The notes under the pieces are model-generated. The model had not been told where the DNA came from. It saw only the letters and a list, made by a program, of their open reading frames with translations, and ran no database searches. Made by a program: the position numbers and the translations under genes. From a virus (taxonomy: Duplodnaviria > Heunggongvirae > Uroviricota > Caudoviricetes), in IMG/VR virus record IMGVR_UViG_2548876947_000004: a stretch of DNA of 64,000 nucleotides. One strand, given 5' to 3'. How positions within the stretch are numbered: the stretch's first letter is position 1; each line of letters begins with the position of its first letter. This document shows, piece after piece, positions 40,650 through 47,600 of this stretch.

Positions 40650-41597
40650 TTATAATATCGTAATTGTTGCATTTATCGTAACTATCCCGCTACCGGTATC
40701 TCCGCGTATTTTCATTGTAAGAGGTTCATCAACCCCTGCTCCAAAGGGAGGGACCACGTAATCTATTTGTTGCCCAATTGGTATATTGGACATTCCCAGA
40801 CCTTGTATTTCTACATCATACGTTCCAGTGGACACTATTTGGAATGTTAGTTTGGCGTTAATGGTTTCGTTATCTGAACTGTTAACAGCGTTTAGTGCAG
40901 TGGTTGCTGTGCAGGTGTTACCAGTAGTTGCCATACACGACAATTGGCTATCTTTGAAATTCATATTTACAGCATGGTTGTTGATCGCGGTATACGTAAT
41001 TACGAGTTTATTACGAATGTTACTTTGGTGATTGGACGTATCGTCGTCCGCGCTATATGCCCACTGGTCCTCAAGAGTTACGCTGTACGTCCCCTCTAAT
41101 GTTTCCGTTGTACTGAAAGGGCGTAATTTTATGTCGACATTAGGCCGATAGCTAGCTACTTTTCTCACTATGCCAGCACCTTGAACATCGTTGTTCTCGT
41201 ATTTTGCGTATCCTAGATTTAGTGTGCTAGCGTTATAGCCAATTTCTGCTATATATTGTGAATTGCCACTAATCGGTTTTTTGCTTCCCGGTATAACGGA
41301 GTAGGTATTTACGTTGTTCGAGTAATAGGACAGTCCCATGTATATCCTGTCAGCTCTATCGAGGGTGTATTTATAGGTGAACTCGCCTCCTCTGATACAA
41401 TCCCAGATCGACATTGTTTTTGTCGTGGACTCTCCATTAACCCATTGCGCATTCTTGTTAGTAGTAGCTCCTTGTATAAAAATGGATGTAGGACACATGA
41501 GCGATCCAGCGTGGCTGGATAGACTGGTAAGCAATATTGCTATAGATATATATTTGGTCATTCTTGGCAGTCTCATTGTTGATTTGTAAATTTTCAT
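40650..41597 (-). CDS. Secreted fimbrial adhesin/tip-like protein (last gene of fimbrial operon)
   Basis: Signal peptide (likely start at Met13 MTKYISIAILLTSLSSHA), S/T/N/Y-rich; very AT-rich codon usage. Confidence 0.4.
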   Translation of the reverse strand: MKIYKSTMRLPRMTKYISIAILLTSLSSHAGSLMCPTSIFIQGATTNKNAQWVNGESTTKTMSIWDCIRGGEFTYKYTLDRADRIYMGLSYYSNNVNTYSVIPGSKKPISGNSQYIAEIGYNASTLNLGYAKYENNDVQGAGIVRKVASYRPNVDIKLRPFSTTETLEGTYSVTLEDQWAYSADDDTSNHQSNIRNKLVITYTAINNHAVNMNFKDSQLSCMATTGNTCTATTALNAVNSSDNETINAKLTFQIVSTGTYDVEIQGLGMSNIPIGQQIDYVVPPFGAGVDEPLTMKIRGDTGSGIVTINATITIL

Positions 41598-41986
41598 ACG
41601 GGCAAAGCGCTCTTCTACTGCCCACGATATCCATCGTGCCGTATGATGTTTCCTCCGCTAGAGAACAATCTCTTCAGCCCCTCTTCGGGCATGTTTCTCA
41701 AGTCGCTGCTTGTTTTGCCCATAGCACTATCCTTGTGCTCTCGTTGCATAAAACTACACACCAAGCCAGTCAATCCACGCTCCATACGACTGACCTATGT
41801 TTTATCCGAATTGCATTATCCTCAAAATAATGACAGCACGCGTAACGGTTTGCGCCCTGTCCTGCGGTTCGAGAAAGCTCACTCTTCCGTAGCACCGATA
41901 TATTTCTGCAACTCATATTCCCTATGTGATGTTTGCGTTATAACGCGTCGTAAAACACTCTGCGTTATCCCAGCCCTTTGTCCCCT

Positions 41987-42628
41987 TTATTCCTGACGCT
42001 TCAGCAATCCGCTAACCACGTCCGCAAAAGCTTTTCCGTAGCCCTGCTCACTGGACGCCTGTATGGCTCCGTTATTCATCAAGTATTTTCCCCTGACGAA
42101 GAAAGAAGGTGTTCCTGTTACACCATAAGTTCTTGCCGCTTCCTGCTGTTTTGCCGTAAGGGCACGTACCGCCATACTGTTTTTTGCTGCATCATAGTCC
42201 CTTTCGGAAATACCGGCATCGATGAACACTTGGCGAATACTGGCTTCCGTCGTAATGTTCCTGTTTACCTGTACTGCCACAAATAGTGGTAACTCCACTT
42301 TGTCTTCCACACCCAGTACTTTTGCCACCGACCAAGCTTCTGTCAGCTCCTCTCCCATCGGCCCCATTGTGCTAACGTGATACTTAACAACTTTCTCTCC
42401 AGCTGGCAGGATTTTGTCCACTGCCTGACTGACAAAAAAACGACTGCTGAAGGCTGCACAGGGCGGACAGTAAAAGGAGAAAAACTCCACCACCGCCGGA
42501 GTATCCTCTACCGGCATCTTCAGCATGGTATAGTCCTTTCCTTCCACGGGAACTGCCGCCTGAGTATGGGGCATACAAGTGATGCCCAGCCCACAGAACA
42601 GCAGAAATATCAGTTTTCTGAACATCAT
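41987..42628 (-). CDS. Periplasmic thiol:disulfide oxidoreductase, DsbA family with CPPC active site (SrgA-like)
   Basis: Signal peptide then FFSFYCPPCAAF thioredoxin-fold motif; 213 aa. Confidence 0.75.
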   Translation of the reverse strand: MMFRKLIFLLFCGLGITCMPHTQAAVPVEGKDYTMLKMPVEDTPAVVEFFSFYCPPCAAFSSRFFVSQAVDKILPAGEKVVKYHVSTMGPMGEELTEAWSVAKVLGVEDKVELPLFVAVQVNRNITTEASIRQVFIDAGISERDYDAAKNSMAVRALTAKQQEAARTYGVTGTPSFFVRGKYLMNNGAIQASSEQGYGKAFADVVSGLLKRQE

Positions 42629-42871
42629 TAATTACCTTTCACTTTATTTATTAAAGAATAATAGAAATTGTTTTTCTGTCCGAAACACCATGCCGGATCA
42701 GTAATAATTCTGCAGCAAATGAGTTTCAAACCAGAGATAGCCCCAGAGAAAACAGTTCAGGATGAACAGAAAAATTTCTGCAAAATATTCTTTCAGCCTC
42801 CCTCCAGTTCTCTCCCCTTTTGCGTACACCTTTTTCCTGCCTACAGGTATTTGTTTCACCTTTGGCCTTCT

Positions 42872-43396
42872 TTACGGATAACCTACTTCAAAACGCAACG
42901 TGGCCGATGCCAAGCCGAATGGCCCGTTCTGAGACACATTCGTCTCCGGAGTCAAGGTGCAGGTACGCATCATGGTGCCAACAACAGCATTTTCATCAGT
43001 GCAAAAATAATCGCTCATCGTCGGACCAGTAAGTTTTATCAGAGAAGCGCTCTTCTTTTCTCTCAGCGCAAGTGTCGCACCGGTTTCAGTACCACTGTCT
43101 GTCTGCAAGATAACTTTTTCATCACCGCTTGCAGTTCCTTTAACAATGTTAGCTGTCAGAGCTGTTTTAATCGGAGTGTCACCTTCACACTTCCAGGTGA
43201 TCTCCAGCGGAGCATGTATCTTTGACCCTGGAGTCAGGGTGCCCAGGTTATATGAAGTAGGCACCGTAATGTCACAGCTTGGCTGGGTGAAGGCGACATT
43301 AATTGTCAGCGTCGCTGTGGCAGTGGTGGCAGCCTGCCCGCTGCCAGTCATAACCGTCATTATCAGTAAAGCCTGGGCTACTTTAATGAATTTCAT
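42872..43396 (-). CDS. Fimbrial minor subunit
   Basis: Start at Met 43396 (MKFIKVAQALLIMTVMTGSGQAA signal peptide), 8 nt after chaperone stop; C-terminal LRFEVGYP beta-strand. Confidence 0.6.
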   Translation of the reverse strand: MKFIKVAQALLIMTVMTGSGQAATTATATLTINVAFTQPSCDITVPTSYNLGTLTPGSKIHAPLEITWKCEGDTPIKTALTANIVKGTASGDEKVILQTDSGTETGATLALREKKSASLIKLTGPTMSDYFCTDENAVVGTMMRTCTLTPETNVSQNGPFGLASATLRFEVGYP

Positions 43397-46509: not shown

Positions 46510-46582
46510 GGAGCATATACTCCGAAAATGGGATGATTTACCCGGGAGTCTGCTCCCGGGTAAAGGATATAAAGATCAGGAA

Positions 46583-47095
46583 TTACTGATAAGTAACCGC
46601 GTAAGCAGCTGCTGTCTGGAAGTCACCCGGAGTGGTACCACCCTTCAATTTTGCGGTGAACTGAAGTCCCTCGGTTGCCAGCTTGCTTGCGGCAAATGTG
46701 GAAACATTATGAGATGCGTTAATCGGATTGCTATCCTTACCATTTGCTGGTGTCAGAATTACATACGCGTCCTGTGCCGTCCCACCCTGAGCGCCAATAC
46801 CATTTGGCGTTAGCTCACCTGTCCATGCAATAGACGCAGTTTTATCAGTAAGTGAAGCACAGTCCCCTCCTGAGACATTAGTCGCTTTGAAAATAATATC
46901 TTTAGCATCACCTTCACCACCTGGTGCAACTGTACCTAATTGCACCAAATCAGTAACATTACCATCAATAGAAGGAGTTACATCGCAAGTAACTGCTGAT
47001 ACGTTACCAAAGAACTTAACATCGCCCTGAGACGCCATTGCAGAACCTGCAGTCATGGTCATTGCAATTGCAGAGGCAATCATTAATTTTTTCAT
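46583..47095 (-). CDS. Major fimbrial subunit (K88/Pef-like)
   Basis: 170 aa; signal peptide MKKLMIASAIAMTMTAGSAMA; conserved Cys pair; C-terminal AAYAVTYQ strand. Confidence 0.75.
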   Translation of the reverse strand: MKKLMIASAIAMTMTAGSAMASQGDVKFFGNVSAVTCDVTPSIDGNVTDLVQLGTVAPGGEGDAKDIIFKATNVSGGDCASLTDKTASIAWTGELTPNGIGAQGGTAQDAYVILTPANGKDSNPINASHNVSTFAASKLATEGLQFTAKLKGGTTPGDFQTAAAYAVTYQ

Positions 47096-47276
47096 CTTAT
47101 AAAGCTCCGTGATTACTGAATTAAATTAATTGAGCATGAAATTACAGGACACATATAATGATGTGTCGCTACTTTCTCCCCAAATAAAAGAAAATAACGC
47201 CACCCCATCTATATACGCCAACAACATATATGCACAACATTAATTCGTTATACTAAGATTGCGTTTATCATTGTCA

Positions 47277-47600
47277 TCAGCAATAAAACCGAACTAGTTT
47301 TGATACACTCCTTTCCACTCTAAGCAAGCGTCCGACACATACACTCAAATAACCAGCATTAACTCCATATCTTTCACAGACAACCTTACGTGAATCTCCC
47401 AAGACAAGATGGTCGTGCATAGCCAAAATAACCTTTTGACTATGAATTGAAGAAAGCTCAACTAATAAATCAAACTGCTCACCTGAAAGAGTTCTCCCTC
47501 CCATAATAAAAGGGTTACCGTCCCACCGATAGTTAGAAGAATCAATACTATTATAGTTAGACATTATATTCCCCTGCTGTGTTCTTGCTTTCAAAACCAA
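47277..47600 (-). CDS. PapB/PefB-family fimbrial transcriptional regulator
   Basis: Small ORF heading the operon; EQFDLLVELSSIHSQKV...CERYGVNAGY resembles PapB family; start may be internal Met. Confidence 0.6.
   Translation of the reverse strand: MVLKARTQQGNIMSNYNSIDSSNYRWDGNPFIMGGRTLSGEQFDLLVELSSIHSQKVILAMHDHLVLGDSRKVVCERYGVNAGYLSVCVGRLLRVERSVSKLVRFYC

Follow-up and report, generated by a model that had tools for sequence, protein, structure and literature searches.

We analyzed a 64,000-nucleotide (nt) stretch of DNA from IMG/VR virus record IMGVR_UViG_2548876947_000004 (hereafter the window, meaning this whole stretch), which belongs to a P1-like (Punavirus) genome and carries a chaperone-usher fimbrial operon. 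The open reading frame (ORF) listing revealed seven intact ORFs between 40650 and 47600, all on the minus strand and in the same orientation, as an earlier note on this DNA had described. Most of the functions proposed in that note were borne out by homology searches, including comparisons with the pef and F18 operons: the PapB-like regulator, the usher, the PapD-like chaperone and the CPPC DsbA-like oxidoreductase were recovered by profile searches, and the major and minor subunits were recognized through homology to F18 fimbriae.

The first gene encodes a PapB/PefB-family regulator of 95 amino acids (aa) when read from its ATG (47277-47564; Pfam PapB, 94 bits); the ORF extends from a TTG to 47600, and homologues are annotated at 95 aa. 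It is followed by a FedA/PefA-like major fimbrial subunit of 170 aa with two cysteines (46583-47095), which is 58% identical to FedA over its full length and 43% identical to PefA. A signal peptide and a C-terminal AAAYAVTYQ motif, in common with FedA and PefA, were read from its sequence. The outer-membrane usher (44068-46482; ORF from a TTG to 46509) matched Pfam Usher (485 bits, profile positions 3-549 of 549) and PapC_N, and scored 1101 bits against the NCBIfam model of the PefC/AfrB family, NF011760 (cutoff 752), over positions 3-796 of 796. The PapD-like periplasmic chaperone of 230 aa (43383-44075) overlaps the usher stop by 8 nt and matched PapD_N (120 bits), PapD_C (41.5 bits) and NF011758 (370 bits, cutoff 248). 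The next gene encodes a FedE-like minor subunit of 174 aa with four cysteines (42872-43396), 55% identical to FedE over its full length. The 170-aa and 174/182-aa subunit ORFs were without a Pfam match. The last two genes encode a DsbA paralogue of 213 aa with a signal peptide and a CPPC active site (41987-42628; Pfam DSBA, 74 bits) and an orphan secreted protein of 303 aa (40650-41561; 315 aa from an upstream ATG at 41597), a candidate two-domain tip adhesin.

Internal ATGs are the likely starts of the regulator, usher, minor subunit and last gene, as judged for the first three against annotated homologues. The genes listed earlier all stood; the usher, counted before as 813 aa, is likely 804 aa from its internal ATG. 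The last gene had also been called AT-rich, which holds modestly, as its GC content is about 42% compared with 47-51% for the usher; the truly AT-rich part is the leader at 47565-48170, with about 30% GC. These results indicate that the locus is an intact and complete chaperone-usher fimbrial operon of the PefC/AfrB (F18/Pef-type) family. In PHROGs, the usher matched phrog_7543 (378 bits) and the chaperone phrog_6765 (150 bits), both of them distant families labelled 'unknown function', so that such genes in phage or prophage records are not unprecedented.

The position of the operon was determined by alignment to the P1 genome (NC_005856), which took in the window up to 52500; 52500-64000 corresponds by extrapolation to P1 about 21-32.6 kb. 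The window is collinear with P1 from 66209 through 94800/1 to 21109 at 93-98% identity, and lox-cre, c1, pac, prt, pro, lyz and tail genes lie in P1 order within it, placing the element on the P1 backbone. On the left, window 39589-40300 (minus strand) corresponds to P1 9750-10461 at 96% identity and contains lxc (39589-39837) and ulx (39834-40274). On the right, P1 homology restarts at P1 17095, and window 48489-52500 corresponds to P1 17095-21109 (darB 5' end, prt, pro, lyz). A darB 5' remnant of about 47 codons was found there (48489-48630, minus strand), with the P1 PdarB/LPpro promoter region beyond it, followed by the portal gene prt (48703-50412, plus strand; 97.5% identical to P1). The cargo between these flanks measures 8.2 kb (40301-48488), more than the interval given in the earlier note, and takes the place of P1 10462-17094, which is darB (10469-17236) minus its first 47 codons. 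The alignment thus confirmed that a complete operon is carried as cargo between ulx and prt, and that it sits, as an exact replacement, where P1 carries darB.

A remnant of an insertion sequence (IS) was observed at the right cargo junction (48190-48460), with 70-77% DNA identity to annotated IS3-family (IS2/ISEc36-like) transposase genes and a match to the IS2 remnant that lies ahead of fedA on the F18 plasmid. The replacement of darB appears, from these traces, to be an IS-associated event; no direct or inverted repeats, the marks of a transposon or integration site, were found flanking the cargo. Between dsbA and the last gene lies a gap of 390 nt with a remnant of a reverse-transcriptase (RT) gene (41618-41817); this remnant matches part of the RT genes located 3' of dsbA in two related plasmid operons, L005 and L014. 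Small cargo ORFs at 48184-48486, 41615-41785 and 48336-48503 had no family match and sit in the IS, RT or darB remnants. A promoter-like match to the predicted PdarB of P1 was found at 48709-48680 (minus strand), aimed into the cargo, and a terminator-like hairpin lies after it at 48186-48171; both are consensus matches only.

We examined the distribution of the operon among P1-like elements, defined as those carrying the prt-pro-lyz backbone (479 PLSDB plasmids; 476 of 5,426 complete Escherichia coli genomes). In PLSDB, it was detected on 12 of the 479 plasmids, all from Escherichia albertii, about 96-102 kb in size and with about 91% identity. On the one examined in detail (NZ_CP030784.2), the operon lies between lxc, annotated as 'modulator protein', and the portal gene. 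At least 80% of the operon was present in none of the complete E. coli genomes, and hence in 0 of their 476 P1-like elements. It is therefore minority cargo and not universal in P1-like elements; universality was a finding that, according to the earlier note, would have overturned its reading. The operon was also absent from the phage collection, in which 35 records share the flanking P1 backbone.

Other public sequence collections already contain the operon under automatic annotation, and among draft sequences it is common. The exact chaperone protein was indexed in 184 blocks, and all eight contexts shown were P1-like and placed it between prt and ulx. Exact copies of window proteins were found on 57-90 contigs labelled E. 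coli, some of them deposited as 'MAG: Bacteriophage sp.', and the last gene was found on two IMG/VR contigs. Near-identical contigs measured 93-98 kb, and two loci were 99.987% identical to window 36001-52000. A 2025 survey, in which fimbriae are not mentioned, reported that about 41% of E. albertii isolates from the UK carry P1-like elements, as do several diarrheagenic E. coli lineages (10.1101/2025.09.12.675607). Our literature search, whose coverage left out subscription journals, found no paper on chaperone-usher fimbriae of P1-like phage-plasmids.

The E. coli and E. albertii forms have the left junction in common at 95% identity, together with the IS remnant, which argues for one ancestral acquisition. 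The same insertion is present in a lineage of P1-like elements in both species. Synonymous divergence (dS) between the E. coli form and that of E. albertii locus L001 was 0.24-0.55 for the operon genes versus 0.07 for prt. This gap could reflect either homogenization of the backbone by recombination or exchange of operon segments with plasmid-borne relatives. At locus L013 (4306-4821), the major subunit corresponding to window 46583-47095 was swapped for a 61%-identical allele of 171 aa, while the adjacent usher was 99.6% identical, suggesting cassette-like antigen exchange within the phage-plasmid lineage.

An alternative explanation is that the element no longer functions as a phage and that the operon spreads only vertically or by mobilization on a P1-derived plasmid. 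On non-restricting hosts, P1 can grow without DarB, and Ulx works with DarB. The loss of darB and the state of ulx would be in keeping with a plasmid life: the window has an intact ulx, but the copy in E. albertii L001 (around 11431-11862) has lost 146 bp and contains stops, and those in L008 and L011 are shortened or rearranged, a decay that fits the loss of its DarB partner after darB went. Relatives are typed as non-mobilizable plasmids in PLSDB. It also weighs against a functional phage that the window covers about two thirds of the genome; P1 32.6-66.2 kb (repA, parAB, lytic replicon) falls outside, as do the genes for replication and partition of the plasmid and a large part of the tail region, and phage competence is judged from a partial genome. 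We nevertheless consider the plasmid-only explanation unlikely. In the window, the backbone keeps its collinearity with P1 at the identity given above and retains full-length prt, pro, lyz, pac and tail genes, contig sizes of about 94-100 kb agree with a P1 headful, the deposits as bacteriophage and in IMG/VR point the same way, and the absence of DarB is tolerable on non-restricting hosts.

The AT-rich leader upstream of the regulator (47565-48170, minus strand) contains two Dam 'GATC boxes' of sequence AAAGATCGT at 47669-47677 and 47794-47802, that is, at -110 and -235 from the regulator ATG. These are the only two copies in the 64-kb window. The regulator itself is 52% identical to PefB of pSLT. 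The proximal box is invariant among the operons of E. albertii, Escherichia marmotae and E. coli AJ1 and in Salmonella pef, where it lies at -113 from pefB. The pef operon is controlled by Dam, Lrp and H-NS (PMC12388093, PMC6844306) and is silent in vitro (PMC6844306). Two Dam boxes upstream of a PapB-family gene suggest phase-variable expression, and the AT-rich leader is probably silenced by H-NS, both by analogy with pef and other PapB-family operons under Dam/Lrp/H-NS control. Two observations speak against a pef-like switch. The distal box differs from that of pef in position and orientation (spacing of 125 bp in direct orientation here, 102 bp and inverted in pef) and is lost in E. albertii L001. 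In addition, the ORF listing and Pfam searches found no PapI/PefI homologue in the cargo, although a host-encoded or other PapI homologue is possible.

The same features bear on the idea that the operon is cryptic, silenced baggage from an IS-mediated capture, which confers no phenotype on the lysogen and is heading to decay. A leader of 30% GC is typical of H-NS-silenced fimbrial operons, of which pef provides the silent example, IS and RT remnants lie in and beside the cargo, and the distal GATC box has gone in E. albertii. The coding sequences tell otherwise. The ratio of nonsynonymous to synonymous substitution rates (dN/dS), calculated with four other loci, was 0.04-0.32 for all seven genes, demonstrating purifying selection on each of them. 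All seven were intact in every locus examined, even though dS between lineages reached 0.55, and the swap of the major-subunit allele in L013, next to an usher that has hardly changed, suggests that an exposed antigen is under selection. We therefore regard the cryptic state as quite improbable.

The distal 303-aa protein had no match in Pfam, NCBIfam, PHROGs or PDB sequences and none among GTDB species representatives. Its profile hidden Markov model recovered only its own cluster from 1.84 billion representative proteins, and a word-indexed search of 5.8 billion proteins yielded 24 clusters, whose members all came from E. coli or E. albertii, for the most part on contigs of 94-100 kb. The protein represents an orphan family found only with this operon. 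The gene was unbroken in each of 11 loci (86-100% nucleotide identity), and its dN/dS was 0.25-0.32. Two loci, L006 and L010, have 229-aa gene calls, and breakage of the gene was considered there and rejected: the calls reflect the gene caller's choice of start, and the DNA is intact and 99.9-100% identical. Candidate relatives were rejected as well. The ORF is not a FedF homologue (BLASTP E = 2.5, hhalign probability < 4%) and has no similarity to pef orf6 or to the 308-aa ORF of E. marmotae.

Several features of the distal protein are compatible with a fimbrial tip adhesin. A signal peptide is present, and near the C-terminus a glycine precedes a strand of alternating hydrophobicity; the same holds for FedF, for pef orf6 and for the 308-aa ORF of the E. 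marmotae operon. Pairwise identity averaged 71% over residues 33-195 and 88% over residues 196-315, so that a variable N-terminal part precedes a conserved C-terminal part. A low-confidence AlphaFold model comprised two all-beta domains, and the top Foldseek matches in PDB were the CFA/I tip adhesin CfaE (6K73, E 1e-3, probability 0.91) and then the CupB6 tip adhesin (5CYL); the search of viral structures returned nothing meaningful. The label 'adhesin-like' given in the earlier note remains unproven and rests on the position of the gene, the signal peptide, this conservation pattern and weak fold matches.

A tip adhesin is the most likely role of the distal protein, held with moderate confidence and not established, and several results count against it. 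The mean predicted local distance difference test (pLDDT) score of the model was 60.8, the C-terminal domain modelled alone reached 45.9, and the template-modelling (TM) score of the CfaE and CupB6 matches was about 0.23. Alignments by hhalign with N-terminal, C-terminal and full-length profiles linked the protein to neither FedF nor pef orf6 nor a major or minor subunit. Finally, the 390 nt with the RT remnant part the gene from dsbA, and it may be a later addition with separate transcription. These results would suit a protein that is not in the fiber at all, being instead independent secreted or outer-membrane cargo, with adhesion residing in one of the two subunits, major or minor, as is the case for K88/K99-type fimbriae. 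Such an arrangement would account for the RT remnant between the two genes (the RT gene of L005 and L014 is found past the operon end), for the lack of any resemblance to pilins or adhesins in sequence or profile, and for the low confidence of the structure models. We find it doubtful, because the gene always accompanies the operon in the same orientation and is intact and under purifying selection, and because its best fold matches in PDB are two-domain fimbrial tip adhesins; the signal peptide, the C-terminal strand and the variable-N/conserved-C pattern speak against it as well. The lack of profile similarity is itself uninformative, because FedF, a proven adhesin of the same position and size, was likewise without profile similarity to its own subunits when used as a control.

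The DsbA paralogue was compared with known oxidoreductases. In the PDB search, it matched Salmonella DsbA (3L9S) with 181 bits and SrgA (3L9V) with 162 bits, and it thus appears about equally near to housekeeping DsbA and to SrgA. Its identity to SrgA is 46%, and the two have the FYCPPC motif and the flanking 'APAVVEFFSFYCPPC' sequence in common. SrgA is a CPPC DsbA paralogue and has PefA as its substrate (PMC8405906). Paired cysteines occur in all structural proteins of the present operon (two in the major subunit, four in the minor subunit and four invariant ones in the distal protein), which, together with the action of SrgA on PefA, makes a dedicated folding catalyst for the fimbrial proteins a reasonable proposal.

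Taken together, the window carries an intact F18/Pef-type operon as an 8.2-kb cargo replacing darB in a P1-like phage-plasmid of Escherichia, and the explanation that we consider probable as a whole, with good confidence, adds to this the following fiber-assembly and conversion mechanism. As in the chaperone-usher pathway of F18 and Pef, the subunits would be exported by Sec, and the element's own CPPC DsbA paralogue would form their disulfides, as SrgA does for PefA. The PapD-like chaperone would cap the subunits and the usher would polymerize them by donor-strand exchange into a fiber of the 170-aa major subunit and the FedE-like minor subunit. The orphan 303-aa protein would most likely stand at the fiber tip, its variable N-terminal domain binding a receptor and its conserved C-terminal domain docking into the fiber. 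Expression would probably be phase-variable, governed as in pef by the PapB-family regulator, the two Dam/Lrp GATC boxes and the probably H-NS-silenced leader. Lysogenization would hand the whole organelle to a new host at the price of DarB protection against type I restriction, and on this inference the element would be an agent of lysogenic conversion.

A further step can be put forward tentatively: the P1-like lineage may be a virion-transmissible vector of colonization factors, which has given up DarB, an anti-restriction protein that is packaged, for a self-sufficient adhesion organelle with its own folding catalyst and a new tip-adhesin family. If true, fimbrial adhesins would spread by phage infection and not by conjugation, and host or tissue tropism, in E. 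coli or the bird-associated E. albertii for instance, would be determined by the fast-evolving N-terminal domain of the adhesin. The element would also be a case of a phage giving up an anti-restriction function for one that benefits the host. Phage-plasmids have been studied mainly for resistance and defense genes, and the operon would add host-colonization organelles to their movable cargo. F18-type assembly machines joined to unrelated distal genes form a natural series for the study of adhesin swapping, to which the operon contributes an orphan candidate adhesin without known relatives. There is also a practical consequence: an F18-type usher and chaperone on these elements can mislead virulence-gene typing, and the exact major-subunit protein already carries the name 'F107 fimbrial protein' in one source.

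Other segments of the window also depart from P1. The homologue of the P1 dmt gene for a Dam/Dcm-type methyltransferase (204-3491, plus strand) encodes 1095 aa, compared with 754 aa in P1. Its in-frame insert of about 1 kb (418-1458) matched Pfam Hint_2 and LAGLIDADG_3 and looks like an intein with a homing endonuclease. A non-P1 segment at 19369-22896 replaces P1 84543-85182 (the pmgT region) and contains five or so ORFs, including one for an Ead/Ea22-like protein (20773-21459); further non-P1 segments lie at 24182-25113 and 31442-33154. At 38173-39588, the type III res/mod genes of P1 are replaced by one gene for a 435-aa SIR2_2 protein (38235-39542, plus strand), whose best PADLOC match was the candidate system PDC-S25 (92 bits), followed by ThsA-like (61 bits). 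The same slot holds DUF2971, YaaC-type or other genes in other fimbrial P1-like loci, and this variety marks it as a defense hot spot.

Against this background, the element resembles P1 and other members of Punavirus in its collinear backbone and in carrying variable cargo between conserved genes, as at the res/mod slot, and differs from P1 in having a fimbrial operon in place of darB. The operon itself was compared with Salmonella pef/srg, the arrangement that it resembles according to the earlier note. On pSLT, the order is pefBACD-orf5-orf6-pefI-orf7-srgA. Both systems have a PapB-family regulator with a proximal Dam box at about -110 from its start, a major subunit, usher, chaperone and minor subunit, and, downstream, an ORF of roughly 300 aa and a CPPC DsbA paralogue; the latter two are in inverted order. 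Identities were 52% for the regulator, 43% for PefA, 58% for the usher, 64% for the chaperone, 27% for orf5 and 46% for SrgA, with none for orf6. The ORF listing showed no pefI, LuxR-type orf7/srgD, srgB, rck or srgC between 40301 and 48488, where the small ORFs are without a Pfam match. The major subunit scored 154 bits against the PefA equivalog model NF011761, under its cutoff of 227, and is not a PefA by that measure; the CPPC DsbA paralogue is of the SrgA type, with specificity for fimbrial subunits presumed by analogy. The likeness to pef/srg thus held for the oxidoreductase and did not extend to the accessory genes, and pef was rejected as the nearest relative, because the usher is 94% identical to that of F18 versus 58% to PefC.

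The nearest named system is F18 (F107; fed) of porcine E. coli from edema disease and post-weaning diarrhea, exemplified by pW1316-2 (NZ_CP080237.1). The two operons have the same order of major subunit, usher, chaperone, minor subunit and a distal gene of roughly 300 aa, and both have an IS2-type remnant upstream. Amino-acid identity was 94% for the usher, 87% for the chaperone, 58% for FedA and 55% for FedE, and the usher and chaperone genes were about 89.5% identical in nucleotide sequence. At 58%, the major subunit is a FedA homologue and not the F18 antigen. The F18 locus examined differs in being without a PapB-family regulator and without a dsbA paralogue, FedF and the distal protein described here are dissimilar, and F18 is carried by IncF-type plasmids and not by phage.

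Overall, sequence comparison placed the operon closest to unnamed operons of the F18-like kind that include a dsbA gene and are located on conjugative IncF plasmids from E. marmotae and E. coli (NZ_CP099345.1, NZ_OZ547219.1). These have the same order (PapB, major subunit, usher, chaperone, FedE-like subunit, DsbA) and the same proximal GATC box, and their identities were 93-95% for the usher, 92-93% for the chaperone, 82-83% for DsbA and 69-82% for the minor subunit. They differ in the major subunit (42-49%), in the regulator (45%) and in lying on conjugative plasmids, not on P1-like elements. For the E. marmotae plasmid, the values were 45% for the regulator, 49% for the major subunit, 95% for the usher, 93% for the chaperone, 82% for the minor subunit, 83% for DsbA and none for the distal protein; its operon also has a LuxR-type gene and the unrelated 308-aa distal ORF. 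These comparisons indicate that the assembly machinery is conserved across this group, whereas exchange affects the structural subunits and, most of all, the distal gene.

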